Source: Alphaproteobacteria bacterium | Lineage (GTDB): Bacteria; Pseudomonadota; Alphaproteobacteria; RF32; CAG-239 | Assembly (NCBI GenBank): GCA_045643605.1 | Contig: JAZULC010000018.1 | Location: 53,700 to 117,699 of the forward strand | Length of the DNA stretch: 64,000 nt | Reading direction: 5' to 3' | Shown: positions 45,707 through 63,839 of the stretch, piece by piece | Layout of the letters: every line of letters begins with the position of its first letter | Position numbering within the stretch: the first letter of the stretch is position 1 | The notes under the pieces: model-generated | Database searches by the model: none | Told to the model about the DNA's origin: nothing | What the model saw: only the letters and a program-made list of their open reading frames with translations | Program-made: the position numbers and the translations under genes

Positions 45707-45804
<98 letters not shown>

Positions 45805-47102: not shown

Positions 47103-47210
47103 TATCTTATTATTGATAGTAAGCTATATTTTAGTTATTGCATATATCATTTTTGCAATTAAAATACAGACACGTAGTTACAATTAATATTATTTATGTC
47201 GAATAAATTA

Positions 47211-47519: not shown

Positions 47520-48070
47520 TGTGGTTAAACCTATTAAAAAAATTGCCCTTGTACCTATATATAGAACTTAATTATTTTAGTGATTGTACCATTTATAAAA
47601 TTGGTACCAAGCAAATGTTTTTTATCTTCAAACTAAAATTTCGATGTTAGAAACAGACATCATTATAGAATCGTTTATTAAGGCTCACTGAGATAGTACT
47701 TCGATTTTTCATCATAAGTTAGATTTAGAATAATTTACCAGTGCACGCCCGATAGAACTGATAACCTCTGTGATATCCATATCTTAAAAATCCATAACAT
47801 ATAAGCAAAAGAAGTTTGTGTTATGTTATAGAACTTAATTTGATAAGTATCTTTCCCCATCCATCAACTTGCTACCAACATAAATGGTTTTAATCTATAG
47901 ATGGTTAAAGCTGAATGGATTGTATAAATAAGAGCTGAATAGCTTTTTGAAAGCCGCTGAGAGCATATTTTATTTTTTTGTATTGAGTACTACAAGAAAG
48001 AAAATAATCATCTATAGGAGCTTAAAAATACCGATGCTGATCTAAATATATCTAGAGCGAATGTATTTTA

Positions 48071-51000
48071 TCATTCTAGTGCTATTAGTTTCTTAATGAA
48101 ATCCTCATCATCTTGGAAAAATACATTATGATCTTCAAAATCTTCTTTATTCCAATCACCACGCCAATTAACTTGTCTAATGTTGGTATTGGAAATTATG
48201 GCTGAATTCAAAATCACGTTGTCATCATTCAAATCACGTTCTAATATTTTGATTCGCTTATGGAAAGTTATTTTGGTGTCGTTTTGACCATCCAAATTGC
48301 GAATACCCTTTGGATCAATAAAGGTTATATACTGTTTATTGTCTTTTACATGCCATAGAATAAAGTCTGGATAAAAATTTCCTTCCTCAAAGAAACCTAT
48401 ACCATTACCTCTACTACGATTTCTTAAGAGATAGAATTCATCATTGGCATATTTTTGTTTGTTTTTATTGTAATATTCCCTCAGCTGTTCCACAAACTTT
48501 GTTTCCCCATCATTCAGTGCCACAGGTTTAACTTCTATAACTTCATTGTTGTTCAATGACAATATCGGATTATATAAATGTGTTTGGAAGTACATTGACT
48601 TACCAAATGGAAAATCAAAATCTTTTAGTTGTCCTGACTTTATCAGATCAATAAGCTGACTGATCTTATGAATTACATCCATTGCGCTTTCTTGAATATA
48701 CACTCTGTACTCATCAATAAAGTTAGAATCTTCTGGCGTTAGCTCCTGATATACAAGTTTATCTTTTTCCCAATCTGATTTCTTGTAAAAATAAAATCTT
48801 TCACAGTATTTTTTCAATAAAGACACTATGATATCGTATGTTCTATCAAAGACGGAGAAGCTACTGAGATATAAATCTTCTCTTGGAATATACAAAGTGT
48901 ACCAATCATTGTGCTGGAATATTTCTTTTATCTCATCCACGCTCAAATTCAAGTTATACCAAGATTTCTCAGCCTTAAAATCTTGCATTTCCAGATATAT
49001 TTTATTCCAATCAATAAATGCTAAGTTATCGGCAGGAATTACATTTTCTTCTTTTTGATGTATAACGCCATCGGCAACACCTTTTGCTTTGATTGCTTGA
49101 ATCTTCGGATACCAATCAAGTACAACCTTGTTACGTGTTAAATATTCAAGATATTCCAGATTTGGTTTATCACCTTGTTTTTTGAAATCTAATCCTTCTT
49201 TTAATTTGATTACTTTGAGTTTTGTTTTCTTTGGCAAGTCACTCTTCAAAACAGGTATAATGTACTCTTCCTTTACATTACTACCAGATGGAAGACCTTC
49301 ATTTTCCAGATATTCCCTGAACTGACGCATATAATCTGCTCTAACACCGAATATATTAAGTGTTTCAAGATGTCGGATGATTCTGGCTTTATCATTTGAA
49401 AGATTCAGCGATTGAAGTGCAGATGTTCTTTTCAAACTGTTTTCATATCCTTTTAAGCGAACACCGCGTCCAAACAATTGAATAATTTCTGATCCTTCTG
49501 ATTTACCAATATTCATAAGTCCCATTGTGCTAACTCTAAAGCAATCCCAACCTTCGGTAAATTTTTTAGAACCAATCAAAACATTAACTGGAGAAGAGTT
49601 AGAAGTAATGCTGTCAAATACCGAACCGCTGAAATTCTTATCTGAAATAATCAATTCTTCGTGAGTTTTGCATAATTTAATCAATTCGGCACTATCACCA
49701 ACATTTATCAGACCAAATGCTTCATTCGTTCCAATTCTTAGTGAAATCTCTCCACTTGCACCACTGAGGTTTTCAACGTGTAATGAAGCTGCCGACTTTG
49801 CGTGGAATACCTTTTGCAGTATTTCATCATATAACTGCTTTCCAAACAACTCACCGACAAACGAAAAAGAATTGGAAAATATATCTTTTCCAGTGTTATC
49901 AAGCAATCCTGTCTTTCCTGACACTAAGATGTTTAATAATTCTATGCTTTGTCGTTCATCACGTACAAATTCTTCCAAAAACAGCAAAATATCTAAAACA
50001 TCGGATACAGCTCTTTTATTTTCCGTCCTAACTGCTGTAACCGTGCCACCGACAAATATCCATAACGGTTTTTCTATATTAAATGCTGCAATCTGTGACT
50101 TATTTTCTTCCCATACCTTGAGCTGCTGGAAATATGACAACAAACACCCAGTTAAATACTTCTTCCTGGTTAATTCAATGCTGTCGTCTGCTAGATTGAG
50201 GATTTTATAGTCTTTTCCATACCCATCACCATAAAACCACTTATACGAATAATCAAAAATTGTTGCTTTAGCATATTCGTTTTCTATATTTTCTTTGTTG
50301 GCTGCTTTGACCGCTTGTCCTAATGTGGCTGAATATTCAAAAGCAAAACCTTCGGTGGAAAGTCTATCTCTCTTTTCTTTCCATTCGTTACCCTGAGTAC
50401 CCTTATGTACTTCATCAATCAGCACCAAATTGTTGTTTTCAAAAGAATCTACGGATACGGTTTTTTCCTTACCTTCTTCTTTTAACTTAGAAATTTCAAT
50501 AATCTCAACGGTGTTAGCAGAAAACAACTGTCCAGCTTTTTTATCAAAGATCTCAGCACCAATTCTGGAAATATTAAAGTTTGCCAAATGTTGTTTAGAC
50601 AACCCTTCGTTCGGCGTAATAAGTAAGATTTTGTTCAAAGATCCTGTTTTCTTGTACTTCTCCATATAAAATCTGTATTGCAAGATGTTCATATGCATCA
50701 GCAGCGTCTTGCCAGAACCTGTGGCATTCCAAATAGCTATTTTGGATAAATCGGCTAATGTGTAATCTGGTATATCTATAAAATTGAGTGAACCTGACTT
50801 GAACTGATTTAATTCAGCAAGAAAACCTTCTTTATCATTGAAAAACTTATCTAGATATATTTCAACAAATAGCAAACAAAGATACTGGAAATACTTCCAT
50901 TTAATTACATCTTTGCGTTTTCCTTGCATTGCTTTGGTATGTTTGGTGATATTCATATCATAAGCAAGCAGAATGTCTTTATTTAATTTAGTAGACGTTT

Positions 51001-51190
51001 CAAATTGTTCGGTATCAACCAATCTTTTGTAGAAATAGCTGATTTGATTTTCATTCCACCCTTCTTTAACATCGGATAAAACTTTTGCAACAGATTCAAA
51101 ATCTTTGAAACCGATCTGATCAAGCATATAAGCATTGAGCATCAGCTTTTGTGCAAAAGGAATTTCCGTCTTTTTAATCTTCTTTGCCAT
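48071..51190 (-). CDS. ResIII-type SF2 helicase fused to a C-terminal PD-(D/E)xK nuclease (Type III Res-like restriction subunit)
   Basis: NATGSGKT Walker A, LIDEVHKG (DEVH box), QLFGRGVRL motif VI, and the C-terminal YPDFILWHVKDNKQYITFIDPKG (PD...DxK) at nt 48302-48373. The start ATG overlaps the upstream stop (TAATG). Confidence 0.85.
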   Translation of the reverse strand: MAKKIKKTEIPFAQKLMLNAYMLDQIGFKDFESVAKVLSDVKEGWNENQISYFYKRLVDTEQFETSTKLNKDILLAYDMNITKHTKAMQGKRKDVIKWKYFQYLCLLFVEIYLDKFFNDKEGFLAELNQFKSGSLNFIDIPDYTLADLSKIAIWNATGSGKTLLMHMNILQYRFYMEKYKKTGSLNKILLITPNEGLSKQHLANFNISRIGAEIFDKKAGQLFSANTVEIIEISKLKEEGKEKTVSVDSFENNNLVLIDEVHKGTQGNEWKEKRDRLSTEGFAFEYSATLGQAVKAANKENIENEYAKATIFDYSYKWFYGDGYGKDYKILNLADDSIELTRKKYLTGCLLSYFQQLKVWEENKSQIAAFNIEKPLWIFVGGTVTAVRTENKRAVSDVLDILLFLEEFVRDERQSIELLNILVSGKTGLLDNTGKDIFSNSFSFVGELFGKQLYDEILQKVFHAKSAASLHVENLSGASGEISLRIGTNEAFGLINVGDSAELIKLCKTHEELIISDKNFSGSVFDSITSNSSPVNVLIGSKKFTEGWDCFRVSTMGLMNIGKSEGSEIIQLFGRGVRLKGYENSLKRTSALQSLNLSNDKARIIRHLETLNIFGVRADYMRQFREYLENEGLPSGSNVKEEYIIPVLKSDLPKKTKLKVIKLKEGLDFKKQGDKPNLEYLEYLTRNKVVLDWYPKIQAIKAKGVADGVIHQKEENVIPADNLAFIDWNKIYLEMQDFKAEKSWYNLNLSVDEIKEIFQHNDWYTLYIPREDLYLSSFSVFDRTYDIIVSLLKKYCERFYFYKKSDWEKDKLVYQELTPEDSNFIDEYRVYIQESAMDVIHKISQLIDLIKSGQLKDFDFPFGKSMYFQTHLYNPILSLNNNEVIEVKPVALNDGETKFVEQLREYYNKNKQKYANDEFYLLRNRSRGNGIGFFEEGNFYPDFILWHVKDNKQYITFIDPKGIRNLDGQNDTKITFHKRIKILERDLNDDNVILNSAIISNTNIRQVNWRGDWNKEDFEDHNVFFQDDEDFIKKLIALE

Positions 51191-51981
51191 TATTCTGTCA
51201 CCGTTCCATCTTTAATATGATATTTTATCTTTTTCTTTTTACAAAAGCTTATTACTTGTTCGCTTAGTAAATTGTAAAATTCTTTATGTTGTTTATATTT
51301 TGATACTTCGGCATTATAATTGGTTCTTCCGAAAATTATTTTATCAACAAAAGATATTTTATCCAAGATCTGTTCTATATTTTGATCTATTAGGTTAGGT
51401 GTTGGATAAGGTTCCATACTTACCCACGTTTTACAGCCTTTAAGGTGTAAATTATAAAGAGCATTTAATCTTTCTTCATATCTTGCTGATCCTGGTTCAA
51501 ATTGCTCTCTATATTTCTCATCCAATGAAACCAAGGTAACACCGTACTCATTCTTCTTAGAATATTTGGATAATTCAATTGGTAACACACCTTTTGTTAG
51601 AACAGTACATTTAATATTTGCATTATTAAGTTTTTGTATAATTTTTAAGCTCATATCTTGAACTTCGTTGAATCCATACATAAAAGGATCTGATGAAAAA
51701 CAGAGATGTACTGATTTGATTTTATCCTTATACTTGGGAATTTCTTTATCAAGTAAATCCAAAGCATTTACAACTAATTTCGGTTCAAGCCATTCTTCAT
51801 AACTTTTAACTTTTCCAAACCTTTTAGCCATTAAAAAAGCATAGCAAGGATATTTACAACCATGTGCACAGCCTTGGATATGATTTATTGTATAATCACC
51901 ATACTCTACACCAGTTTTGTAAAGTAATGTTTTACGTTCAATATATCGAGTAACTTTTTTATCTATCATCTGACTAACCAT
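51190..51981 (-). CDS. Three-Cys-motif, radical-SAM-like protein (SplB/DUF5131-like TIM-barrel class), partner of TcmP
   Basis: YTINHIQGCAHGCKYPCYAF: the Cys residues at nt 51870-51844 are spaced CX3CX3C, one residue longer than the canonical CX3CX2C. 263 aa, with an 8-nt overlap with the TcmP-like gene. Confidence 0.7.
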   Translation of the reverse strand: MVSQMIDKKVTRYIERKTLLYKTGVEYGDYTINHIQGCAHGCKYPCYAFLMAKRFGKVKSYEEWLEPKLVVNALDLLDKEIPKYKDKIKSVHLCFSSDPFMYGFNEVQDMSLKIIQKLNNANIKCTVLTKGVLPIELSKYSKKNEYGVTLVSLDEKYREQFEPGSARYEERLNALYNLHLKGCKTWVSMEPYPTPNLIDQNIEQILDKISFVDKIIFGRTNYNAEVSKYKQHKEFYNLLSEQVISFCKKKKIKYHIKDGTVTE

Positions 51982-52810
51982 TCAATATATAATCAGCTAC
52001 CTTTTGTGCTAATCCCCAGGCTTTTTTTGATGGATTTGATACAGCAAAGCATAAAAGAAATAGAGGAGATTTTCTGGAATTATATAGTATTCTGTTTTTA
52101 TTTGATACAAATGGGAATTCTTGTTTTAATTTTTTCTGGATATATTGCACTAATTTATCTGTACTTTCCTTCACAACGTCCAATTCTCCGAACAAATTGC
52201 CTTGTGGACTTTCGCTGTACATTTCTTTTTCCCAGGAATCATCTCCAAACACCTGATTCAATTTATTTTTCCAACTCTCATCTATCTTTCCATCTCTTTT
52301 AAGCAATCTTGTTGTTGCAGAAAGAGGGAACAAATACCACAAATCTATGCTTTGTGTATTTTTTATCGCAGTTAAGACATCCCAGGAAACTTGCATAGCA
52401 CAAGGATCTAGAAACAATAAAGCTCGTGAAGCTTTCCAATCTATTTGAGAACATAATCTTTTGACCTCTGTTCCAGCATCTCCTTGAATTATATCAACCT
52501 TACTTGCTCTATCTGGATATTTAGTGGCAACAATCTTTCTCAGTTCTTGGCATTTATTTGGATCTAATTCTATAAAATAATAGTGATCAAATTCTTCTTT
52601 AGCACTCAAAGCTATTTGTACAGAGCCTTCTATATCAAAAGTTTCCCATTGATCTCCAATATCAATACTTCCTGTGCCAGCAAAAGCGTCTATATAAATT
52701 TTCTTAAACCGTTGCTTTTTTAGTGCCTGAACGTAAAAATTCAAATAATCTGAAAATATGTTTAACTTTTCAATTGTCCAACGCCCACCAAATTGTTGTA
52801 ATTGCGCCAT
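51974..52810 (-). CDS. tcmP: Three-Cys-motif partner protein TcmP-like (methyltransferase-fold-like motifs)
   Basis: FGGRWTIEKLNIFSDYLNFY...IYIDAFAGTGS...GSVQIAL...YYFIELD...LLFLDPC...DLWYLFP matches my recollection of the TIGRFAM TcmP family layout. It lies adjacent to a three-Cys protein, as that family is defined. Confidence 0.7.
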   Translation of the reverse strand: MAQLQQFGGRWTIEKLNIFSDYLNFYVQALKKQRFKKIYIDAFAGTGSIDIGDQWETFDIEGSVQIALSAKEEFDHYYFIELDPNKCQELRKIVATKYPDRASKVDIIQGDAGTEVKRLCSQIDWKASRALLFLDPCAMQVSWDVLTAIKNTQSIDLWYLFPLSATTRLLKRDGKIDESWKNKLNQVFGDDSWEKEMYSESPQGNLFGELDVVKESTDKLVQYIQKKLKQEFPFVSNKNRILYNSRKSPLFLLCFAVSNPSKKAWGLAQKVADYILNG

Positions 52811-52812
52811 CT

Positions 52813-55800
52813 CTACACATCCTTTACATCAAACATTCTTTTGAGAAATTCGGCTTCGGTTAGACGAACTTTCCACGTTTCATCACCTTTACGAAGGTTT
52901 TCAAGGTTGTTGTTGCCATTCACATAAATTGTATCAAATTCCATATCCAGTGTAGAATAGTTTTGTTTTTCAAACCAATTATCCAGAGTTTGATTATCTA
53001 CCACACTGGTATCACGCCACAAGACAAGAGTCTTTTCTCCAGCACGTGTTCTGCCCTCAATAGCAACAATTTCTTTGGATTTACGAATGCTTTCCACATT
53101 CAGACCAATTAAATAGTTAAATGTTTCTACCAAATCCACTTTGACAGTTTTTGTTTCTCCATCACGAGTGATTTTCATTTCATAATCAAACGGATGCTCA
53201 AAGTCAGAAACGTTTAATAAAGAACCTTGTGTTTCCAAATCCATCATATAGTTCAAGATGTATTCTTCTTTGATTTCTTTATTCTGTGGTTTGCTCAACA
53301 AGTCGCTTTGCTGTGCACTGCGTTCCACTTTCAAGTTATCTAAGGCATCTTCATATGATTCCAAACGGATGTATTTGAAACAATGGCTTGAACCCTTACG
53401 AGAAACAGGCTTACCGTCTTTCCAGTCTTCAGAATAAATGACTTTTTCAATACGAGGTTTAGTAACTAAATCAAAGTAGTTACCCATTTCAACCATAATG
53501 TATTTTCTTTTTCCATCATCTTGACGATTTGAGTTAATAACTGCGTGACCAGTCGTTCCAGAACCCGCAAAGTAATCCAGAATATATTCTGATGGCTGCA
53601 AGTTAATAAAATCTGCCACAGTATAAACACTTTTTACAGTATTTAAAGAAATGTCATAATTTACAAAATTTTTCATCATTTCTTTAACAAATTCTGTTCC
53701 ATACTCAGGATTGGCGTAAAGAGGTGAAACCCAAGTGGTTTTTGGTATTTCTCTTTCATAGGCAGGAGTATATATGGCATTATTTTTTGCAATATAAGTA
53801 TTACATTCGTTGGATACTCTAGGATATTCTCTTTGCCATACCAATTTTGTGCCATCATCCATTTTTGGTAGAACAAACACAAATCCTAAACGTGTATATT
53901 TTTCTTCTAATTGTTTAACATATAAATCATCAAATATTCCTGTTTCTTTTGAATATATCTTTTGGTATTCGTCTTTTTCAATTGTAAAAACGCTATTATT
54001 CTTAATTAACATAGGGTAATATCTATATGGACGTTCTTCTCTTCTGGAATTCGTGCCTGTCCTTTTCAAGGGTACCATTGAAGATTTTTTATCACGCTTT
54101 TCTACCCTTAATTCTCCTATACTTTCTTTATTTTTTGCGTAAATCACGTGGAAATCTGATATTTTATTGTTTTTATCCGCAACTCTTCCTTGAGGATTAC
54201 AAATTACAGTGATTATTGATATATAATTATCTTTTGAAAAAACATTGTTATTTATATAGCATAAGTTATTAAGTTCTATATCGTCAATTGCTTGATAGAT
54301 TAAACCATCATCAGACATCAACTTCTTTGCAATAGTCAATCTATTTTCATAAAGAGAATTCCAAGAACTGTCTTTATAATCGTTTTTATATATAATTGGA
54401 GATGATGCTGTATTATACGGGGGATCAATGTATATGCACTTTACCCGTTCTTTGTACTTTTCTTGCAACAAATTCAATGCTTGGAAGTTTTCACTATGAA
54501 TCAACAAACCATCACATTGCTTGTCAAAATCATCAATAGATGCCAACAACTTGTATTTGAATTCGGTATCAAAAAATGCCGTGTCTAACACCAAAAACGG
54601 ATTATTTTTCAAGAAATCTATGGTCAATTTACCTGAATATTCTTTGATTTCATCAATAGCAAACAGTTTGATCCATTCTTCTTTTTGTTTTTCATTAGCC
54701 ACAATTGCTGGATACAGCTCTTCTGGCACTCTATCAAGGGTAATGCAGTAGTTCGTTTCCAAAACAAATTTCTTTTTGAGCCATATTTTCTTTTGAAAGT
54801 TCTCCAATGATGATAAAAATTGAATAATCTTACGAGCAACACGGCGTAAAACCTTAATTTTACCAAGATATTGTTCAACTTTAGCTTCTGTTTCGCTGTC
54901 AATATCATCCAAGTGCATAATTTCGTTTTTGATGTAAAAATCAAGCTCTCGGTTCAAGAACTTGCCCAAATCCTTATGAATAAAGTAATCAAACGTGCTT
55001 TTGGCAGTGAAATTATTGATGTGCTTTAACAAAACAGTCATTCTGTTCTTTTCGGAGCCTGTTAATTTACTTAATTCACCGAAAATAGGCATTAAAACAG
55101 CATTTTTAAGCAATACGTCTACAGATTGTTTGTTTAATTCTTCTTGTTTAGGAGCTCCTTCCTCAGGCAAATAACTAAATAAAATAATAAATTCACCATT
55201 CTCTAATCTTACAGGATGTTCTTCTAATAGTTTGAAGCGTCTGTTTTTATCATCTTTGTTATTATTTTGTTCTGTTGTTGCAGAAACCACCTCAAAACGA
55301 ACTTTGTAATTACCTGCTTTAAATGTATAATTTGTTAGTGTCTCTCCTGATTTTATATAATATTGGTCTGCATTTGCCCAATGGAGCTTAACTTCTTCAC
55401 CCTCATACGGAAGAGCATACACACCTTCTTTGTAACGGCGAAGAGACATAAAGTCACCTTCGGAATAATAACGTTTAAAAAAGTTATAAAGGTCAGAATA
55501 AATCCCGTTCTCAACTTTTTCGGCATCAAACACAGAGGTTAATTTTGCCTTAAGCTCTTTTACTTTTGGCATAGTATCTGGATCAACACCCAGATCTTTT
55601 GCTGCTTTTATGGATTTATCTAAATCTTCTTGAATGGACTTATTATCACTGGATACGTATTTTGCCAATCCTTCTTTGACTTGTGGAAGCAAATCATTAT
55701 CAATGAATTGCGTTACTTCCTGTGACTTTAGATTCATAATCCGATACAAACCAAAATCCAGATCATTACGATCAAGCTGAAAAATTTCTCTTAATTTTCC

Positions 55801-55824
55801 TTGTAATTCTTCAAAAGCAGACAT
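52813..55824 (-). CDS. Site-specific DNA methyltransferase, beta-class N6A/N4C (Type III Mod-like), with a ~440-aa uncharacterised N-terminal region
   Basis: Motif IV IYIDPPYNT (DPPY at nt 54415-54426) precedes motif I DYFAGSGTTGHAV (nt 53557-53571), with ~280 aa (a putative TRD) between them. AAGAGG RBS upstream. Confidence 0.9.
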   Translation of the reverse strand: MSAFEELQGKLREIFQLDRNDLDFGLYRIMNLKSQEVTQFIDNDLLPQVKEGLAKYVSSDNKSIQEDLDKSIKAAKDLGVDPDTMPKVKELKAKLTSVFDAEKVENGIYSDLYNFFKRYYSEGDFMSLRRYKEGVYALPYEGEEVKLHWANADQYYIKSGETLTNYTFKAGNYKVRFEVVSATTEQNNNKDDKNRRFKLLEEHPVRLENGEFIILFSYLPEEGAPKQEELNKQSVDVLLKNAVLMPIFGELSKLTGSEKNRMTVLLKHINNFTAKSTFDYFIHKDLGKFLNRELDFYIKNEIMHLDDIDSETEAKVEQYLGKIKVLRRVARKIIQFLSSLENFQKKIWLKKKFVLETNYCITLDRVPEELYPAIVANEKQKEEWIKLFAIDEIKEYSGKLTIDFLKNNPFLVLDTAFFDTEFKYKLLASIDDFDKQCDGLLIHSENFQALNLLQEKYKERVKCIYIDPPYNTASSPIIYKNDYKDSSWNSLYENRLTIAKKLMSDDGLIYQAIDDIELNNLCYINNNVFSKDNYISIITVICNPQGRVADKNNKISDFHVIYAKNKESIGELRVEKRDKKSSMVPLKRTGTNSRREERPYRYYPMLIKNNSVFTIEKDEYQKIYSKETGIFDDLYVKQLEEKYTRLGFVFVLPKMDDGTKLVWQREYPRVSNECNTYIAKNNAIYTPAYEREIPKTTWVSPLYANPEYGTEFVKEMMKNFVNYDISLNTVKSVYTVADFINLQPSEYILDYFAGSGTTGHAVINSNRQDDGKRKYIMVEMGNYFDLVTKPRIEKVIYSEDWKDGKPVSRKGSSHCFKYIRLESYEDALDNLKVERSAQQSDLLSKPQNKEIKEEYILNYMMDLETQGSLLNVSDFEHPFDYEMKITRDGETKTVKVDLVETFNYLIGLNVESIRKSKEIVAIEGRTRAGEKTLVLWRDTSVVDNQTLDNWFEKQNYSTLDMEFDTIYVNGNNNLENLRKGDETWKVRLTEAEFLKRMFDVKDV

Positions 55825-55833
55825 TTCAACCTC

Positions 55834-58641
55834 TTAAATTAGCTTCCATCTAAATGTAAATAATTGTTCTTGCGTTATTTTAGCGTTCATATGTTGACGC
55901 AGATTCTCAATGAGTTCTTTACGTTCCAACTCAATTTCATCTTCAACATCAAAGATATTCTGCCTTAAGCGCCTTTGTTTGCGCTCCAAAGCCGCAATCT
56001 CTTCTTCTAACACAACTTTTCTTTCTATATTTTCTACAGCCCGAACTTCTCTTTGTAAAGACTTAATTTTACTTTTTGTATCTCTTAATTCCTTCTCGGC
56101 TGCATATAACTTATCGTCGGTATAACGATCGATTTTATCACTTTCTTCTTGGAAAAATGCATTATTTCTGTTTTCGGAAAGCCGTTTTGTCTTCTCAATG
56201 TTGTCGTTTTGAACTTTGGTCAGGTTCTTTTCTTCAATATCAAGAAGATCACGTTCTTTTGAAACGCTGGCAACATCCAATTTGATCATTTCTTCTAACG
56301 TTTCGGAATCAACATTGTTCTGGAAATTATCAATACCAGACAGAACCAAATACTCCTCCTCTTCAAAGCTCTTAATCTTGAGTAAATGGCACGTACACCA
56401 ACCAGTTATACGCTCATCACACATTTTTTGAAGATAACTGTGTTTCCGTGGACTATTTGTTACATTGAAAACAAGCTCATCCAAATTGCTTGTATCGCTG
56501 TTTTTAGCCGTTGATAATATTTTTTCTCCAAGCGGATGGGACAATCTCAGGATTACATCATTACTTAAATCAATATGTTTATCAGTTTGGGTTATAAAAT
56601 AGTACTTCTGGCACATTCCTAATTGTTTGTTTTTCAAGGTAAATGACAACTCATAATCATCAAAATCACCGTCATCCTTGAGAATCGTCTTAGCCAAACG
56701 CCAAAACATTTCCTGCCGTTCGCTAAGCTGTATTTTTGTTTCTTCCAAACTGACTTTTAATCTTTGATGAACCGATGCGTCAAATTCATTCAACAGTTTC
56801 TGCTTTGTCTGGCGCATTTTCTTATCAATGCTTTCTTCCATTTCTTTTTGTAAAGCATCAAAAGCAGCTTCTATCTCTTTGTTAGTTCGGCAGGTTTGAT
56901 AGATATTGAGGATCTTCTTTTCAAAGTCGACACCATCTTCTATACTTCCAAGAATTTCGTCTGAAGCTCCAAAAACACCTTCAAACAGTTTGAATTTTTC
57001 GCTTAATAACTCAAAGACTCGCCGATCTGCTGGGTTTTTCTTGTTTACAAAGTTGATTACCACAACATCAAACTTTTGTCCGTAACGATGACATCTTCCA
57101 ATTCTTTGTTCAACACGCTGAGGATTCCACGGTAAATCATAGTTTATAAGCAAAGAACAGAACTGCATATTAAGACCTTCTGCACCAGCTTCAGTGGCAA
57201 TCATAATCTCAGCTTTGTTTTTGAACTCATCCATAAGATCATTACGTTTTAATTTGTTGCCACCGTAGAATTGTACAATCTTACCGTTATAGCCGTGAGC
57301 ACTTAAGTATTCGAAGAGGTACTTCTGTGTACGTCGGCTTTCTGTAAATATTAACGCTTTTCTAGGAGCTCCCATCTTTTCCATTTCAGCAAAACCAATT
57401 TCAATGGCTTTTAATAATTCAACTGTTTTGTTATCATATTTGATCGTACTTGCTAATTTTAAATAACCTTCAATCTGTTCAATTTCGTGATCCAATTGCT
57501 CCATATCTATTGATGAATCTTCTTTTTCAACAGTTTCTTCAATTTCTTCTGGAGATTGTTCATCATCAAGATCAGCTTCAGCAATCAAATCCTCAAGTAT
57601 TTCATCTTCTTGTTCAGTTTGTTGACCTGCTTTTAACTTCTTTAATCTTTCCAACATGGTAGAAAACGTACCGTATATGGCATTTGATGAAGAAGCCAGC
57701 AATTTATACAGAATCAGTGATATTAAATGTCTTTGTCTTGGTGGTATAGCATACAAATTTTCATTTTTTAGAAATTGAGCAACCTCTTCATATAGCTTTT
57801 GTTCGTCCTGTGAAGGTACAAATGGAAACGTAATCGGTTTTCTTTGTGTGTATCTAATATATTCCAGCACATTGGAACGTAGCGTTCTTCTGCAGAAACA
57901 TTGCAATCTTTTCTTTAAGGATTCATAACCAACAGCAGACGTAACATATTGCATTCTAAATGATCTGTCATCACCGAATATATTATCATCAATCAAACTG
58001 CTTAAACCATATAATTCCATTAAAGAGTTTTGCAAAGGTGTAGCTGTCAATAGAAGTTTTTTACGATCTTTCAATGCACGAGATATCACTTGTCCAGTTT
58101 TATTGCTTTCTTTATATACGTTACGTAGCTTATGCGCTTCATCAAAAACCACCAGATCCCAAGCTACGGTTATTAAATCCTGTTCAATTTTTGCAGCCAT
58201 ATTATAGGATATTATAATCACTTTATCCGTTAAGGACAACAATTTGGGAATATAATTCTTTCTTTCCAGAATAACGGCATCCAAACTAAACTTCTCTTCT
58301 AATTCAGTTTTCCATTGCTCTCTGAGTGACGCTGGACATATTACCAGTAGATGACGTTTCCTTTCTGCCCAGTACTGACATAAGACAATACCAGCTTCAA
58401 TAGTTTTTCCGAGACCAACTTCATCAGCCAAAATTGATCCTTTAGAAAGTGGTGATTGCAAAGCAAAGGAAGCAGCTTCAATCTGATGAGGATTCAAATC
58501 GACTTGTGCGTCCATCAAAGCCTGAGAAAGACGTCCTAAATTATTATCCTTGTTAAGCCGTGTCAATTCATAAGCAAAATATTTAGCTTGTTGTTTAGTT
58601 AAAATATCTTTATGTAACAGATTTTGAACCATAGTAATCAT
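55834..58641 (-). CDS. SNF2-family helicase with a ~390-aa C-terminal extension whose last ~150 aa look coiled-coil-rich (DISARM DrmD-like)
   Basis: ADEVGLGKTIEAG Walker A, VVFDEAHKLRN, LLLTATPLQNSL and DLPWNPQRVEQRIGRCHRYGQ motifs. The longest ORF starts at a TTG at 58677; ATGs at 58641 and 58632 are more plausible. Confidence 0.9.
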   Translation of the reverse strand: MITMVQNLLHKDILTKQQAKYFAYELTRLNKDNNLGRLSQALMDAQVDLNPHQIEAASFALQSPLSKGSILADEVGLGKTIEAGIVLCQYWAERKRHLLVICPASLREQWKTELEEKFSLDAVILERKNYIPKLLSLTDKVIIISYNMAAKIEQDLITVAWDLVVFDEAHKLRNVYKESNKTGQVISRALKDRKKLLLTATPLQNSLMELYGLSSLIDDNIFGDDRSFRMQYVTSAVGYESLKKRLQCFCRRTLRSNVLEYIRYTQRKPITFPFVPSQDEQKLYEEVAQFLKNENLYAIPPRQRHLISLILYKLLASSSNAIYGTFSTMLERLKKLKAGQQTEQEDEILEDLIAEADLDDEQSPEEIEETVEKEDSSIDMEQLDHEIEQIEGYLKLASTIKYDNKTVELLKAIEIGFAEMEKMGAPRKALIFTESRRTQKYLFEYLSAHGYNGKIVQFYGGNKLKRNDLMDEFKNKAEIMIATEAGAEGLNMQFCSLLINYDLPWNPQRVEQRIGRCHRYGQKFDVVVINFVNKKNPADRRVFELLSEKFKLFEGVFGASDEILGSIEDGVDFEKKILNIYQTCRTNKEIEAAFDALQKEMEESIDKKMRQTKQKLLNEFDASVHQRLKVSLEETKIQLSERQEMFWRLAKTILKDDGDFDDYELSFTLKNKQLGMCQKYYFITQTDKHIDLSNDVILRLSHPLGEKILSTAKNSDTSNLDELVFNVTNSPRKHSYLQKMCDERITGWCTCHLLKIKSFEEEEYLVLSGIDNFQNNVDSETLEEMIKLDVASVSKERDLLDIEEKNLTKVQNDNIEKTKRLSENRNNAFFQEESDKIDRYTDDKLYAAEKELRDTKSKIKSLQREVRAVENIERKVVLEEEIAALERKQRRLRQNIFDVEDEIELERKELIENLRQHMNAKITQEQLFTFRWKLI

Positions 58642-58732
58642 CTTTTTGTTAAACCTGTTAAATAGTATAAAAGACAATCTTCTAAAACATTATTAATATT
58701 TGCCATAGAAATGTATTTTTGTAATTAATAGC

Positions 58733-58760
58733 TTGACAATTATCAACGTTTGTTTATCAT
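58733..58760 (+). promoter_or_regulatory. Candidate sigma70 promoter for the divergent 159-aa ORF
   Basis: TTGACA (58733-58738), 16-nt spacer, TATCAT (58755-58760). A TAGGAGA RBS lies upstream of the ATG at 58826. Confidence 0.35.
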
Positions 58761-58825
58761 AAGCCCTGTAAGTGAATTTAACCAAACTTGTCCCACTTCA
58801 AGCGGACTAAATAGGAGATTTTAAT

Positions 58826-59305
58826 ATGACTATACATTTTTTCGCTAAGCCTGATGAGCCTTGCACTCAAGATTTAGAAACATTTTTCAAAAATTTTGAC
58901 TTAATTCAACAGCATAAACAGCTAATTTTAGATACACCAGAATACTACAACATTCGCATTTCGGGATGTGGCGTTTTTGCTCTTTATATGCCATCGATAA
59001 GGCTTTCTATTGGTGAATTATTAAAGCTATGGAATGACACGGTATGGAAACAAGATGATAAATATTTTTATTGCATCACAGGCTCGCCTTTAAGCGGTGG
59101 TAATTCTTCAAAATACTGGTCACCTAAAACAGGATTTAAGAGTATGGAAACGCATACATTCAGCACACAAATTCGCAATGCATTGTGGTTACTTCAAACG
59201 GGTTCAACTGAAATTCAAAGCCGATGTACCGCAATTGATATCCCGAATCGAGATATCTCAAAACTTACGATAAATGATTTAATTGATGGTCTTAAAAAGC
59301 CGTAA
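58826..59305 (+). CDS. Hypothetical protein, divergent from the SNF2-MTase operon
   Basis: 159-aa ORF with a good RBS (AGGAGA) and a downstream hairpin terminator. I recognise no family. Confidence 0.5.
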   Translation: MTIHFFAKPDEPCTQDLETFFKNFDLIQQHKQLILDTPEYYNIRISGCGVFALYMPSIRLSIGELLKLWNDTVWKQDDKYFYCITGSPLSGGNSSKYWSPKTGFKSMETHTFSTQIRNALWLLQTGSTEIQSRCTAIDIPNRDISKLTINDLIDGLKKP

Positions 59306-59333
59306 CCATTAATTTTAATTTCAATATACAATC

Positions 59334-59370
59334 AAAAATGAATAAGAAGTGTTAAACTTATTCATTTTTT
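59334..59370. terminator. Bidirectional hairpin terminator between convergent genes
   Basis: AAAAATGAATAAG-(10 nt)-CTTATTCATTTTT: a 13-bp stem flanked by A and T runs. Confidence 0.65.
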
Positions 59371-59410
59371 TGATAACTTATTGAAAAATCAAGAGTTTTA
59401 TATTAGTTTT

Positions 59411-60397
59411 TTATTTCTTCTCTATTTTCTTTTCAATCGTTTTGAGCGATTCTAAATAATCTTTTTCAGCAGCACTCAAGGTTTTGGCTTGATATTTTTG
59501 ATATTCCTCTTTGGCTTTGTTGACGGCTTTTTGGTGAGATACAGAACCTGCACCTTGCAACAAATCTTCTCCTGTTGCTGTTAAAATCTTGTCTAAATGC
59601 TCAGCCCAATCTTTCATCGTCATTGCCTGATGGCGTTCCGCTTGGCGTTCAGCAAAATCTAAATACCCTGAAACAATTTGTCCCATCGTGCGCAGTTCTT
59701 TTTCATCTAAATAATTTTTAGCAATGACAGCATCTGATAAATGTGGTTCTTGCCCCTTAAAAGTTGTTAATCCCATAAATTCTTTTTGTGCATCAGCACG
59801 ACTGTAAATAATTTCAGCAGCCGTTTGGTGACTAACCGCATAATGGATCTTGTTTTGAACTTTTTTGAAGAACTCAACAGAGGTATCAGCATTCGGATCA
59901 TAATCTATACTGGTCGCATATATATCTAAAACCTGACGATAAAAAACCTTTTCGGATGCTCTAATATCCCGAATACGTTCCAAAAGTTCGTGCCAATATC
60001 CACCACCTCCGAGATTCTTCAAACGATCATCATCCATCGCAAAGCCTTTAATCATATATTCTTTTAAGATTTGCGTTGCCCAAATACGAAATTGCGTTCC
60101 ACGTAAAGATTTAACACGATAGCCAACGGAAATAATCACATCCAGATTGTAATATTTTACATTATAATCTTTGCCGTCAGAGGCAGTTGTCAAGAAATCC
60201 TTTACAACTGAATCTTCAACTAATTCCTGCTCTTTGAAGATATTTTGGATGTGAGAACTGATATTTTGTTTGGTTGTCTGCAGCAATTCGGCAATCTGTG
60301 CCTGATTGAGCCAAACCGTATCATTATCAATTTTGACATCAATTTTAGTTTTGCCATCTTGAGTTTGATAAATGATAATATTGTTTTCTTCAGTCAT
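59411..60397 (-). CDS. rhuM: RhuM-family (virulence/Fic-DOC-associated) protein
   Basis: The N-terminus IIIYQTQDGKTKIDVKIDNDTVWLNQAQIAELLQTTKQNISSHIQNIFKEQEL is the characteristic RhuM HTH region. 328 aa. Confidence 0.85.
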   Translation of the reverse strand: MTEENNIIIYQTQDGKTKIDVKIDNDTVWLNQAQIAELLQTTKQNISSHIQNIFKEQELVEDSVVKDFLTTASDGKDYNVKYYNLDVIISVGYRVKSLRGTQFRIWATQILKEYMIKGFAMDDDRLKNLGGGGYWHELLERIRDIRASEKVFYRQVLDIYATSIDYDPNADTSVEFFKKVQNKIHYAVSHQTAAEIIYSRADAQKEFMGLTTFKGQEPHLSDAVIAKNYLDEKELRTMGQIVSGYLDFAERQAERHQAMTMKDWAEHLDKILTATGEDLLQGAGSVSHQKAVNKAKEEYQKYQAKTLSAAEKDYLESLKTIEKKIEKK

Positions 60398-60407
60398 ATA
60401 CGTTCTC

Positions 60408-60854
60408 CTAATCTTTCAAACCCAATTCTTTACGGATTTGTTCTTTGAAATCCAGAATTTTTTTGCGGTTTTTATCTGATGTTTTTTCCCAATGCTTTTT
60501 ATAACTTTTTGCGCTTTCCATAATATCTTCAAACAATGTATAAAACTGCTCTCTAATCTTTACTGTTGCCCAAATTGTTTTAGGTTCTAATGCATTATAA
60601 AAATCTCTAGTATCTTCACTGATATACTTGTTACTTTTATATGTCCGAGCATCTTTTTCATAACGCATTATAAAATCATACATTTGTTCATAAATTTCTT
60701 CACGTTTATCGCGTATATGAACACTATCAGCGCGTTTATTGGTGAAGTAACTTTGGCATAAATTCAACAACCATCCTATAACAACACCAAGCAAGGTGAA
60801 TGTACCACCAATTATTACCGTATGATTTTCCTGATAAAATGTATTCCAATTCAT
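60408..60854 (-). CDS. Small single-TM protein, paralog 3 of a tandem triplet
   Basis: 148 aa. N-terminal TM helix (VIIGGTFTLLGVVIGWLL), IRDKREEIYEQ block and C-terminal IRKELGLKD. Confidence 0.6.
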   Translation of the reverse strand: MNWNTFYQENHTVIIGGTFTLLGVVIGWLLNLCQSYFTNKRADSVHIRDKREEIYEQMYDFIMRYEKDARTYKSNKYISEDTRDFYNALEPKTIWATVKIREQFYTLFEDIMESAKSYKKHWEKTSDKNRKKILDFKEQIRKELGLKD

Positions 60855-60884
60855 ATTCTAATCCCTTATACCAAGTTCTTTACG
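60843..60884. repeat. Conserved 42-bp gene-junction repeat, copy A
   Basis: ATTCCAATTCATATTCTAATCCCTTATACCAAGTTCTTTACG matches 61242-61283 at 41/42 positions, with a 399-bp period. It spans one paralog's stop and the next paralog's start. Confidence 0.9.
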
Positions 60885-61253
60885 CATTTGTTTCTTTAAT
60901 TTTTTTATTACATCAATGGTTTCAGAAGAAATTTCCCAGTGAGTTAAAGGTAAATCATTAAATATCCATAAAATTTTTTGCGATCCGTACATATTCAATA
61001 AAATTTCTATATGTTCAATATCGAATGGCTTTTTTTGAAATTTTTTATCAATTTTAGACAAGATCCACGAATTATATATTGGCATAAGGATAGTCAATAA
61101 TTGTTCGTAGACTTCTTCTCGTTTGTCCCGTATATGTTTTCTATCTTCTATAATAGATTTACGCCATTCAATAAACCACGTAAAACCAGCAGTAAGAAAA
61201 GCACCAAGAATAATACCAAAAGTTTGAGAAGATAAAAATTCATTCCAAGTCAT
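60858..61253 (-). CDS. Small single-TM protein, paralog 2 of a tandem triplet
   Basis: 131 aa. TM helix (FGIILGAFLTAGFTWFI), IRDKREEVYEQ block and C-terminal MRKELGIRD. Confidence 0.6.
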   Translation of the reverse strand: MTWNEFLSSQTFGIILGAFLTAGFTWFIEWRKSIIEDRKHIRDKREEVYEQLLTILMPIYNSWILSKIDKKFQKKPFDIEHIEILLNMYGSQKILWIFNDLPLTHWEISSETIDVIKKLKKQMRKELGIRD

Positions 61254-61283
61254 ATTCTAATCCCTTATACCAAGTTCTTTACG
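61242..61283. repeat. Conserved 42-bp gene-junction repeat, copy B
   Basis: See copy A. The single difference is G versus T at position 8. Confidence 0.9.
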
Positions 61284-61649
61284 AATAGCTTCAATTAATA
61301 CATCTTCGTGATTTCCTGTTTTATGTACAATATCATTATATATGTCTTTAATATTTTGAGTAGCATAAACATTCACATAGGGATACAAATCAGCGACCCA
61401 CGTATCCAAATCTGTTTGATATGTTGGGAAAGATTTTGATTTATTTAATTCAAAATAAGTACGAAGAATCCTACAATATGTTTCTTCTCTTTTTCTTTTA
61501 AGATATAACTCATCATCTCTTGTTTGTTTTTTAAGTTCTTGTTCTTTAATCATTTCAAATTGTGTAACCATTGTCTTATAGCTAGCAAAACTACCGATAG
61601 CTGCACCTATCAATCCAGAAGTTGCCGAAATAACGATTTCTATAAACAT
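61257..61649 (-). CDS. Small single-TM protein, paralog 1 of a tandem triplet
   Basis: 130 aa. TM helix (IVISATSGLIGAAIGSFA), KRKREETY block and C-terminal IRKELGIRD. Confidence 0.6.
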   Translation of the reverse strand: MFIEIVISATSGLIGAAIGSFASYKTMVTQFEMIKEQELKKQTRDDELYLKRKREETYCRILRTYFELNKSKSFPTYQTDLDTWVADLYPYVNVYATQNIKDIYNDIVHKTGNHEDVLIEAIRKELGIRD

Positions 61650-61967
61650 TACAATACCCTTTTTGTCCGTTATACATTCGTAGATTAAAGATCTTTTATA
61701 TTCCGAGAATTTTTACTAATCCCATAATCCCTAAATCCTGTTAAAATTTCTCAACTTGAAAGATAATACAGCTATATTATTATTTTTCTACTAAAAAACA
61801 CTAAATTCACCATTTACTTCAAAAGATTTGCCATATTTTGACGCTAATTTTGTTTTTATGATTAATAAATCTGATTTTTAGGAATTTTATATTACTGTTG
61901 TTTTTCGTGATTATTAAACAAAATAAAAATTTTTTTATTTTCCTAAATTTTCTGAGTTCTAAAATAT

Positions 61968-61993
61968 ATGCATATCACTAAACAGATGTGCAT
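61968..61993. promoter_or_regulatory. Imperfect inverted repeat upstream of the Xis-like ORF (candidate operator)
   Basis: ATGCATATC-(8 nt)-GATGTGCAT, 8/9 complementary, ending 37 bp before the ATG at 62031 in the divergent promoter region. Confidence 0.3.
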
Positions 61994-62030
61994 AAATCAA
62001 TGAAAACATTAAATTAAAGGAATTTATAAA

Positions 62031-62309
62031 ATGAAAAAAAGCAAAATTGATGAAATGCGTGAATTTCTCACTGAAACGTTACCTCCAATTATTGCCAGAT
62101 CAGAAGTCGAAAAATTAACGGGCGGACTTGTTAAACGTTCAACATTATCGTCATATGACAGCAAAGGACAAGGTGTATCAAATCCTATTAAATTTGCTTC
62201 GGTTGATGGTGTTCGTGGCAAAGTAGCTTACAGACGGGATGATTTAGTCAATTGGATTATAGATCGTATGGTTGTTGATGATACACCACCGCAACCTGCA
62301 ATCGCTTAA
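62031..62309 (+). CDS. Small DNA-binding protein, Xis/AlpA-like (candidate excisionase or regulator)
   Basis: 92-aa ORF convergent with and adjacent to the integrase. The IIARSEVEKLTGGLVKRSTLSSYDSKGQG segment resembles an HTH. The assignment rests on position and size. Confidence 0.5.
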   Translation: MKKSKIDEMREFLTETLPPIIARSEVEKLTGGLVKRSTLSSYDSKGQGVSNPIKFASVDGVRGKVAYRRDDLVNWIIDRMVVDDTPPQPAIA

Positions 62310-62312
62310 AAC

Positions 62313-62352
62313 AAAAAAAAGTCCAGAAACATCAAAATTTCTGGACTTTTTT
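62313..62352. terminator. Bidirectional terminator between the Xis-like gene and int
   Basis: A8-GTCCAGAAA-(8 nt)-TTTCTGGAC-T6. Confidence 0.7.
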
Positions 62353-62364
62353 ATATCAGACTAT

Positions 62365-63585
62365 TTAGGCAGCAATGTTGTTTATATTATCATTATCACC
62401 CAAATTTTTACTCATAACACTAATTGAAATATCAGCATCACTCATTTTATTCAATACAATTGCAGCACTCGATAAATTCTCTGGAGCCAGATGAGCATAA
62501 CGTTCTGTCATTCGAATACTTTTGTGTCCCATCAGTCTTTGTACAACATATAAAGCCACACCTTCTTGGACTAACCAACTAGCATATGTATGGCGAAGTG
62601 TATGGAAAACAACACGGTTTTTATCGTCTTTAATACCGTTATTCAATCCAAGATAATCGACTGCTCTGGCAAACGAATCTGATACCTCTTCAATTTTAGT
62701 ACCTTTTGTTGATTTAAATACATATTCACCATTTTGTAATGATTTTGCATTCAAAATACGACATACTTCATCCGTCATATTGGCAAAACGGTCTGAACCA
62801 TTTTTGGGATTACGTATTGCTATTTGTTTGGTTTCCATATTAACATCTTCACCCATTATATTAAAGATTTCACCAGCACGAAGCCCCATATGAAGTGAAA
62901 AGAGAGAGATTTCATACAACTGTTCACTACGTCTCCGTAATTCACTTAAAAGTTTTTTGGCTTCAACTGGTGTCAAAAAGCGTAATCTGTCATTGTTTAA
63001 CGTATATAATGTGAAATCGTCATACGGGTTAGTTCCAACAAATACTCCAGATTTTTTTGCACAATTAAAAATATAAGAAACAGTTACTATTGTTTTGTTT
63101 ATAGTTGCATTTGCTAATCCATCTTTCAGCATAGCTACGTTTACCTTTTTTAAATCACCAGATATAACGTCTTTTAGAGGTTTTTTACCAAATAATTTAT
63201 CATAGTATGTGTTGAAGTCGTGATTTTCCTGATTCTTTTTCTTTTCTTTCTTTTCATAAAGATAATTTTCCGTGTAACCTCCCAAAAACCATTCCCGAAA
63301 AGTCATAGATTCATTTCTTTTCTTGGTTTCCAATTCACGCTTTTCTCTTAATGATGTAGGATTTCCGTTTGCAAGTCTGATATTGCTTTTGATTTCGCAA
63401 AGAGTTTCCATCGCCTTAAGTTTAGTCATACCTTCTGAAGCCCAGCCTAAACCTTCTTCGATTCCTTTTTTATCTTTTTGATACCTGATTATATAATATC
63501 TATCTTTTGAAACGCCGTTTTTTCTTGTTTCGTGTTCTCTATAATAAACACCTTTATAATTTTTTGATTTAATGCGTTTTGGCAT
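62365..63585 (-). CDS. int: Tyrosine recombinase/phage-type integrase
   Basis: C-terminal catalytic blocks LRAGEI, HTLRHTYASWLV and GHKSIRMTERYAHL (R, HxxR, H, Y). 406 aa, located 183 bp from attR. Confidence 0.95.
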   Translation of the reverse strand: MPKRIKSKNYKGVYYREHETRKNGVSKDRYYIIRYQKDKKGIEEGLGWASEGMTKLKAMETLCEIKSNIRLANGNPTSLREKRELETKKRNESMTFREWFLGGYTENYLYEKKEKKKNQENHDFNTYYDKLFGKKPLKDVISGDLKKVNVAMLKDGLANATINKTIVTVSYIFNCAKKSGVFVGTNPYDDFTLYTLNNDRLRFLTPVEAKKLLSELRRRSEQLYEISLFSLHMGLRAGEIFNIMGEDVNMETKQIAIRNPKNGSDRFANMTDEVCRILNAKSLQNGEYVFKSTKGTKIEEVSDSFARAVDYLGLNNGIKDDKNRVVFHTLRHTYASWLVQEGVALYVVQRLMGHKSIRMTERYAHLAPENLSSAAIVLNKMSDADISISVMSKNLGDNDNINNIAA

Positions 63586-63614
63586 TGTTTTGATTCCTTT
63601 GTATTGTATGGAAC

Positions 63615-63644
63615 AATTTTATCCCAAGTCTGTCCCAAGATTTT
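63615..63644 (+). repeat. Island-internal 30-bp repeat, right copy (candidate integrase arm-type site, in the int upstream region)
   Basis: AATTTTATCCCAAGTCTGTCCCAAGATTTT. See the left copy at 45825-45854. Confidence 0.5.
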
Positions 63645-63768
63645 GGTTAAAACATATCAACGTAAATCATCACAAGTGCTCTTTTAAGGGATAATAACAA
63701 ATTGAGATGTCTACATTATTTAGAACATCTTTCAACACACAAAATCACAAATTTTTTTAATAAATCTT

Positions 63769-63839
63769 CGCATTCGTAATGCGTGGGTCAGGTGTTCAAA
63801 TCACCTAATCGGCACCAGATTTTTCAAGGGTTTTGAGAG
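63769..63839 (+). repeat. attR-type direct repeat (displaced tRNA-Thr 3' fragment)
   Basis: A 71-bp copy of 45734-45804 with an A at 63800. It lacks the tRNA 5' half, so it is not a functional tRNA. Confidence 0.9.

Follow-up and report, generated by a model that had tools for sequence, protein, structure and literature searches.

Three mosaic genes for small membrane proteins beside rhuM belong to an uncatalogued family carried by bacterial defence operons

Results

Three small-protein genes and rhuM form one cassette

We analysed a four-gene cassette within a 64,000-nucleotide (nt) stretch of DNA, hereafter the window (contig JAZULC010000018.1, positions 53,700 to 117,699 of the forward strand), from assembly GCA_045643605.1 of an alphaproteobacterium of the order RF32, family CAG-239; coordinates given without a locus handle are counted from the first letter of the window. 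The cassette consists of three genes for small proteins with a predicted transmembrane (TM) helix, here called paralogs A, B and C, lying upstream of an intact rhuM gene (Table 1). Our analysis indicates that A, B and C represent an uncatalogued protein family, found mainly in defence operons, whose genes probably act against phages.

The four genes are co-oriented and separated by gaps of 3, 3 and 10 nt. A first-pass annotation made from the letters of the window had described three consecutive open reading frames (ORFs) of 130, 131 and 148 amino acids (aa), 3 nt apart and 10 nt from the RhuM gene, with a repeat of 399-nt period at their stop/start junctions; the ORF coordinates and the repeat positions bear this description out. 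The two 42-nt junction copies are identical at 41 positions and encode ...KELGIRD, the stop codon, the 3-nt spacer and the MxWN... start of the next gene, with a Shine-Dalgarno-like AAGGGA site embedded within. Upstream of the triplet, a weak -35/-10 match is present at 61790-61763 on the minus strand. Beyond rhuM, an AT-rich hairpin (-11.5 kcal/mol, z = -3.3 against shuffles) probably serves as a bidirectional terminator and closes the cassette, which suggests that the four genes form one unit.

Table 1. Features of the cassette in the window
Feature	Position	Strand	Basis
Paralog A, 130 aa	61257..61649	-	ORF list
Paralog B, 131 aa	60858..61253	-	ORF list
Paralog C, 148 aa	60408..60854	-	ORF list
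rhuM, 328 aa, final gene of the cassette	59411..60397	-	ORF list, Pfam and PADLOC matches
Upstream/promoter region of the cassette	61722..61845	-	blastn to hsdM upstream regions of sister islands
B/C stop/start junction, 42-nt repeat copy	60843..60884	not assigned	41/42 match to the other copy
A/B stop/start junction, second 42-nt repeat copy	61242..61283	not assigned	41/42 match to the first copy
AT-rich hairpin with A-run/T-run flanks, between rhuM and the convergent 159-aa gene	59337..59366	not assigned	RNA fold

The small proteins belong to an uncatalogued family

Alignment of A, B and C revealed an N-terminal TM helix in each and two invariant motifs, K-R-E-E-x-Y and R-K-E-L-G-x-x-D, in agreement with the common layout proposed at first pass (N-terminal TM helix, KREE-x-Y block and an RKELG(I/L)(R/K)D end). 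Paralog A combines an N-terminal TM helix of the 'IVISATSGLIGAAIG' type with a C-module of the 'ILRTYFELNKS' type. The corresponding N- and C-modules are 'MTWNEFLSSQTFGIILG' and 'LLTILMPIYNSWIL' in B, and 'MNWNTFYQENHTVIIGG' and 'MYDFIMRYEKDARTYKS' in C.

A word-indexed search for relatives returned 15 clusters, and a 15-sequence profile was then run against 1.84 billion representative proteins. Hits of this profile numbered 327 at a threshold of E <= 1e-3 and 72 at E <= 1e-10; almost all were 110-150 aa long and aligned end to end. The three window proteins match it over their whole length with both motifs (hmmsearch E 1e-35 to 2e-63, with A at 1e-35). The closest whole-gene relative of A, at locus L055, has 66% aa identity and a ratio of nonsynonymous to synonymous substitution rates (dN/dS) of 0.09; the ratio is 0.19 for B over residues 36-131 and 0.03-0.10 for C. 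Across the orthologous modules of the three paralogs it ranges from 0.03 to 0.19 at dS values of 0.35-2.5, compared with 0.05-0.07 for rhuM. Because each ORF has homologues and each appears to be under purifying selection, the sequence comparisons mark all three as real genes rather than chance ORFs.

Scans with Pfam, PHROGs and NCBIfam, holin and exclusion families included, gave nothing above curated cut-offs for A, B or C, and PADLOC-DB v2.0.0, with its 145 PDC candidates, gave only spurious Cas8 matches (E 0.003-0.025). No recombinase, toxin or antitoxin signature was seen in the Pfam, PADLOC, PHROG and NCBIfam scans. A Pfam scan of 87 family members found no family in common, and a sequence-profile search of the PDB with the family gave nothing under E 0.1. 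We found no names for family members in public sources, and nothing specific to the family in the literature on small TM genes in type I restriction-modification (R-M) loci, Bflower and the rlo genes. Neither the profile searches nor the fold searches described below, both of the remote-homology kind suggested at first pass, led to a known family. Judged by their sequences, A, B and C are three diverged alleles of an uncatalogued protein family of about 130-150 aa.

Proteins of a more remote subfamily, mainly clostridial and about 215 aa in length, have two additional N-terminal TM helices and keep KREE-x-Y and R-K-D-L-G-L-K. We also considered whether the conserved C-terminus is a mere embedded ribosome-binding site. 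This was ruled out, as the motif persists in single-copy genes and lies internally in the 215-aa subfamily.

A TM helix is predicted to run into a cytoplasmic four-helix bundle

Residues 1-30 of A, B and C contain hydrophobic 19-mers (Kyte-Doolittle 1.5-2.1) that are rich in Gly, Ala, Ser and Thr and are followed by basic residues, an order that predicts a single-pass N-out/C-in topology. The TM helix is rich in small-xxx-small motifs. An AlphaFold2 (AF2) model of C, built from an 81-sequence alignment, reached a pLDDT (predicted local distance difference test) of 95.9 and a pTM (predicted template modelling score) of 0.77, with helices at residues 3-72 (the TM segment and KREE-x-Y), 80-95, 98-118 and 122-143. 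The model of B, from a shallower alignment, reached a pLDDT of 79.6 and agrees with that of C. With high prediction confidence, the modelled fold is a single TM helix that continues unbroken into a cytoplasmic four-helix bundle, and the KREE-x-Y block is predicted to open this bundle and RKELG(I/L)K(D) to close it.

Foldseek searches of both models against the PDB returned generic helical bundles only (E >= 0.7). In BFVD, the sole fold match of note was a borderline one to A0A8S5MVL7, an uncharacterised 124-aa protein of Siphoviridae sp. ctGyV19 (TM-score 0.63-0.66, E 0.07, Foldseek probability 1.0, identity 15%). This protein may be a phage-borne relative of the family.

Family members are passengers of defence operons

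In 12 of the 23 other loci examined, the family gene has hsdS upstream and hsdR downstream. With X standing for a family gene, metagenomic contigs carry the arrangements hsdM-hsdS-X-hsdR (L004), hsdS-X-GmrSD-hsdR (L006-L009), hsdS-X-RhuM-hsdR (L010/L011), hsdS-X-X-RhuM-hsdR (L012-L015) and hsdS-X-hsdR (L016), and in each of these the family gene is co-oriented with hsdS and overlaps or abuts its stop codon. Altogether, embedding between core hsd genes was found for L004, L006, L010, L012, L016, L026, L047-L049 and L052-L055.

A census of 283 species genomes of the window's order revealed 13 family loci besides that of the window. Seven of the 13 are embedded in type I R-M operons, two of them as tandem pairs (three genomes) and two with a PIN_12 gene in front. 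The family is present in 15 of these 283 genomes and in 7 of the 24 genera of the order. Elsewhere in the phylum it turned up in one of 400 sampled genomes. The related metagenome-assembled genomes are labelled as gut or rumen Alphaproteobacteria. No family match was obtained by tblastn in 72,556 plasmids and 50,697 phage records, and pattern scans of IMG/VR with two members gave no relatives.

Members also occur at the 3' end of other defence operons. One follows the cyclase-NucC pair of a cyclic-oligonucleotide-based anti-phage signalling system (CBASS; L058), another follows RhuM and a UG13b defence-associated reverse transcriptase (DRT; L057), and a third follows a 459-aa protein with weak DruC/LmuB similarity (L056). 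Others lie two genes from rhuM (L029), ahead of a cytosine methylase-like gene (L030), near hipA (L050/L051), beside an integrase at an element edge (L061) or beside Fic (L062). A distant, 215-aa member with three TM helices, from Clostridia, sits between hsdM and hsdS (L026). Thus, the family is a passenger of defence operons, mainly in the hsdS-to-hsdR slot and also at the 3' end of CBASS and DRT operons, and its distribution is patchy and mobile. In this respect the first-pass view of membrane proteins in a defence setting held: a membrane anchor is predicted, and the neighbours are mostly defence genes.

Several of these loci have further features. In L058 (7992-11121, minus strand), a helix-turn-helix (capH/RmrA-like) gene and the CBASS cyclase-NucC pair lie upstream on the same strand as the family member; only the NucC-to-member gap is short (31 nt), giving a CBASS operon with an extra small membrane gene. 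The reverse transcriptase in L057 (8503-9899, minus strand), which sits between rhuM and the family member, is spread over two ORFs of 123 and 342 aa whose matches to a single PADLOC model are consecutive, as could result from a frameshift or a genuine split. The members in L050 (1098-1535) and L051/L017 (1124-1561) stand alone with no R-M genes nearby, and an apparently HipA-like ORF of about 400 aa lies on the opposite strand about 1.2 kb (L050) or about 0.8 kb (L051/L017) downstream. The L026 operon (4820-9310) has a half-size HsdS (196 aa) before hsdM and a Bflower (PF21784) gene between hsdS and hsdR. The type I R-M operons of two species genomes, L047 (4702-7998) and L048 (8544-11819), encode a 303-aa protein without a family assignment between hsdM and hsdS, and there hsdS is separated from the family member by a gene for a 370-aa PIN_12 protein.

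The genes are mosaics joined at their conserved motifs

Outside the junction, A, B and C are mutually only 20-31% identical in both halves. The first-pass annotation had read the near-identical junctions as a sign of recent tandem duplication or gene conversion. Such divergence between copies rules out recent whole-gene duplication and leaves recombination or gene conversion at a conserved boundary as the source of the junction identity.

Comparison with other loci points the same way. Against gene 1 of L012, B is 91% identical in its C-module and 24% in its N-module, while C is 92% identical to gene 2 of L012 in its N-module and 16% in its C-module; the C-module of C is instead 94% identical to L049. 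The C-type C-module (MYDF.MRYEKDARTYKS) is found paired with three N-module types, upstream of RhuM, GmrSD or HsdR. Among 561 pairs drawn from 34 sequences, 27 share only the N-module, 12 only the C-module and 4 both. At the DNA level, the block shared with L012 (89% identity) extends from just before the KREE codons of B, across the junction, to just after the KREE codons of C, and the next shared block begins in the RKELG codons of C. These edges place the crossovers in the DNA that encodes the conserved motifs. On this sequence evidence, new module combinations are seen to arise through recombination at conserved-motif DNA, and the near-identical 42-nt junctions are the same recombination phenomenon.

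The cassette looks like an orphaned part of a type I R-M operon

The island that holds the cassette (45734-63839) is integrated at a tRNA-Thr gene, with att repeats identical at 70 of 71 positions. A sister island (L012-L015) shares its integrase and 92-aa gene (87% DNA identity) and, by blastn, both att ends. In L012, DNA identity to the window is 74% for the 159-aa gene, 86% for rhuM (dN/dS 0.07) and 89% for the block running from the C-module of B to the N-module of C. The 124 nt upstream of the cassette align with the sequence immediately before hsdM in L012 and L049 (blastn, 75-76% over 127 nt); in L012 the match spans 4392-4516, with the hsdM start at 4513, and the window triplet begins 73 nt after this hsdM-upstream-like region. 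The L012 cargo is hsdM-hsdS-X-X-rhuM-hsdR, and in the window a terminator follows rhuM in place of hsdR.

No hsdM, hsdS or hsdR gene lies beside the window cassette, where the family genes are accordingly not embedded between hsd genes, and the 842-kb, 73%-complete assembly contains no HSDR_N or Methylase_S match. Given the hsdM-type upstream region, the homology of rhuM and the B-C block to L012 and the lack of hsd matches, the cassette appears to be an accessory segment orphaned from a type I R-M operon whose hsd genes were lost or exchanged. This orphan cassette retains three intact, selected family genes.

Other neighbours of the cassette are the integrase and the genes of 92 and 159 aa, and on the far side of the divergent 159-aa gene comes a type III-like R-M operon (SNF2/DrmD-like, MTase_III, PDC-M41A/B and REase_III). 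The window and L012 can be described as one tRNA-Thr island with two main cargoes, a type I R-M operon in L012 and the type III-like operon in the window. The 159-aa gene has no family match and recurs across the sister islands with 47-79% aa identity (window 58826-59305, plus strand; L012 3781-4260; L049 12737-13255; L052 2829-3311). In the window, L012 and L049 it is divergent from the main defence operon, whether type I or type III-like, and it may be an island-level regulator.

RhuM is mostly found without the family

The 328-aa protein at the end of the cassette matches PF13310 over profile positions 1-248 of 252 (E 2.1e-111, 371.6 bits against a cut-off of 33.7) and the PADLOC model PDC-S05 (E 1.1e-174). 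Small family genes also lie directly upstream of rhuM in two other island types (L010/L011 and L012-L015), so the pairing raised at first pass does recur elsewhere. However, a survey of RhuM neighbourhoods in the order gave a different picture of its frequency. The 283 genomes contain about 39 full-length rhuM genes, with any RhuM-family match in 62 genomes; a family member is adjacent only in the window and within 2 kb in two further genomes (G127 and G034), leaving about 36 of the 39 without one nearby. Most family members likewise have no rhuM nearby, and in three genomes (G269, G142 and G267) the two genes are on different contigs. In E. coli B, moreover, a RhuM-domain gene (PDC-S05) cloned by itself reportedly cuts plating roughly 1000-fold for T7 and T5 and roughly 10-fold for T4 (PMC12881386). 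The sparse co-occurrence and the protection by RhuM alone argue against the first-pass proposal of effectors or immunity partners of a RhuM-based module, as does the preference of the family for hsdS and hsdR as neighbours. The most plausible reading is that RhuM and the small proteins travel independently, not as obligate partners, and meet because both favour the same slot; the window rhuM, to judge by its matches, is an independent defence gene.

Discussion

Our findings point to the family genes as probable new anti-phage genes without a dedicated partnership with RhuM. Genes embedded in type I R-M, BREX (bacteriophage exclusion) and DISARM (defence island system associated with restriction-modification) operons frequently turn out to function in defence (Payne et al. 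2024, bioRxiv 10.1101/2024.01.29.577857), and purifying selection together with placement in several kinds of defence operon supports such a role here. As in that guilt-by-embedding set, which includes RhuM as PDC-S05, the homologues are small, co-oriented, translationally coupled inserts between hsdS and hsdR, and the family is patchy and mobile and shares operons with RhuM, GmrSD and PIN_12. The present family differs in that PADLOC, Pfam, PHROGs and NCBIfam hold no model for it and in that the window cassette has no surrounding hsd genes. Embedded defence-operon genes are already known as a kind. The family itself is absent from the libraries searched, and its interest lies in how its genes are pieced together and in the persistence of a cassette that has no hsd genes.

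How might such proteins act? We tentatively favour, as a serious possibility, that each is a stand-alone inner-membrane anti-phage factor, a proposal that draws on the sequences and the structural model. The variable part of the bundle would recognise a phage-derived cue, and the KREE-x-Y and RKELG motifs, which would lie at its membrane-proximal base if the bundle runs up and down, would couple recognition to the TM helix. The helix, with its small-xxx-small motifs, would then self-associate and compromise the membrane, leading to abortive infection. Three copies with different N- and C-modules may widen the range of cues recognised.

The E. coli prr locus offers one precedent. It consists of EcoprrI hsdM-hsdS-prrC-hsdR (PMC3710099), in which PrrC is a cytoplasmic ABC-ATPase/HEPN anticodon nuclease restrained by the R-M complex. 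Family homologues occupy the same position between hsdS and hsdR, which suggests a second-line function tied to type I R-M. Unlike PrrC, the family consists of membrane proteins of about 140 aa without a nuclease or ATPase domain; neither ABC-ATPase nor HEPN domains were seen in A, B or C by Pfam scan or in the AF2 model, so that only gene position is shared with PrrC. Furthermore, the family persists here without hsd genes, and this orphan cassette argues against strict dependence on the Hsd complex.

Several observations weigh against a membrane-damaging sensor. A single TM helix with a generic four-helix bundle fits many roles, and the motifs are assigned to its membrane-proximal base from the order of the helices and not from model coordinates. 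Sequence and fold searches revealed no tested defence protein or membrane effector that resembles the family. Were the proteins toxic effectors restrained by Hsd in the manner of PrrC, one would not expect to find an orphan cassette that lacks hsd genes. Some distant members lie in non-defence surroundings (L023/L024, by PPDK and an ABC transporter; L063). Finally, the type I R-M contexts are not fully independent, since most were found in a single bacterial family whose hsd genes are closely related.

The TM effectors of CBASS, Pycsar and retron systems bear some resemblance, in that a small membrane protein ends the defence operon, as in L058 after cyclase-NucC and in L057 after the DRT. In contrast to those effectors, the family has no PADLOC effector match, the CBASS operon already has NucC, and most copies lack a signal-generating partner. 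Similarly, Bflower (PF21784) is a small membrane protein of the hsdS-hsdR slot that shares an operon with a distant member (L026), but it is a different family, and the window proteins have no Pfam match.

The mosaic build recalls HsdS, whose target-recognition domains shuffle at conserved repeats. Both have variable modules between short conserved crossover stretches, and both occur in the same operons. Unlike the HsdS case, neither inverted copies nor an invertase was seen, the protein is unrelated to HsdS, and the tandem copies are direct repeats, which implies exchange by ordinary homologous recombination between loci or copies. Programmed hsdS variation has been documented (PMC9881135). 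A bolder reading, which we regard as fairly improbable, takes the family as re-assortable membrane-anchored phage sensors, with motif DNA as built-in crossover sites and triplets as reservoirs for new N/C pairings; the accompanying division of labour, with the N-module as the membrane part and the C-module as the recognition bundle, is just as doubtful. If true, defence islands would gain a second, protein-level system of specificity shuffling beside HsdS.

The proteins might instead block phage DNA injection in the manner of superinfection exclusion. T4 Imm and lactococcal Sie are small, single-pass membrane exclusion proteins of phages and prophages, and the family resembles them in size, N-terminal anchor, allelic diversity and occasional integrase adjacency. 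A membrane-anchored bundle would hinder DNA entry at the cytoplasmic face without killing the cell, and the discrete allelic module types would match different phage ejection proteins. Copies at integrative-element edges beside an integrase (the window and L061) and the siphovirus protein as top fold match in the viral library are consistent with this. However, the family shows no sequence or fold match to the known exclusion proteins, PHROGs gave none even with exclusion families included, and no relatives came from the phage records or from the IMG/VR pattern scan. The main home of the family is the R-M operon, not the prophage immunity region, and we consider an injection block unlikely.

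A role as membrane adaptor is quite unlikely; here the KREE-x-Y/RKELG surface would bind HsdR (or RhuM, GmrSD or others) and tether or regulate it where phage DNA enters, at the inner membrane, and the small protein itself would have no defence activity. The gene almost always lies directly upstream of hsdR or of the gene before hsdR, and its overlap with or abutment on hsdS suggests coupled translation. Consistent with an anchor, the number of TM helices varies (one in the short form, three in the 215-aa subfamily) with the cytoplasmic motifs held constant. Nevertheless, the MYDF.MRYEKDARTYKS C-module precedes RhuM, GmrSD or HsdR in different loci, which indicates no partner specificity. Other copies follow CBASS or DRT genes or stand alone near HipA, and the window has three intact copies but no hsd gene.

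The first-pass model, in which the small proteins work only together with RhuM as effectors or immunity partners, now appears very unlikely. It gains something from the gene order directly upstream of rhuM in two other island types, from the presence of rhuM within 2 kb in G127 and G034, and from the proposal by Anantharaman et al. that RhuM is a toxin domain taking DOC's slot in R-M operons (PMC3710099). Set against these are the many members and rhuM genes found apart and the reported roughly 1000-fold protection by RhuM alone.

We judge a function outside defence to be highly improbable as well, whether in addiction or stabilisation, in the mobility of a cassette, or as a housekeeping or niche membrane protein hitch-hiking in variable islands. 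Distant members in non-defence neighbourhoods would fit it, and conserved gene ends and motif DNA serving as recombination points could aid the cassette's own spread, yet placement is consistent and co-oriented in or after four kinds of defence operon, and recombinase, toxin and antitoxin signatures are lacking. The first-pass annotation had itself named a holin or prophage lysis cassette as the contrary case; such a remnant, suggested only by small size and a single TM helix, is effectively refuted by context, with no holin match in either Pfam or PHROGs, an island free of endolysin and phage structural genes, neighbours comprising an integrase, the 92-aa gene, rhuM, the 159-aa gene and a type III-like R-M operon, and a large conserved cytoplasmic helical bundle that is atypical for holins.

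In summary, the tempting idea that RhuM needs small membrane partners is unsupported and can be set aside in favour of stand-alone family genes that are probably anti-phage. Of the genes nested within type I R-M, BREX and DISARM operons, over half have yet to be assigned a role (Payne et al. 2024, bioRxiv 10.1101/2024.01.29.577857), and one such nested family is now defined by its motifs, a confidently predicted fold, its distribution, its contexts and its mode of diversification. The family is not bound to either flanking gene and can outlast the restriction genes that usually surround it. If its members protect against phages, they would constitute a very small, single-gene, membrane-level defence whose modular build would make swaps of specificity simple to test.

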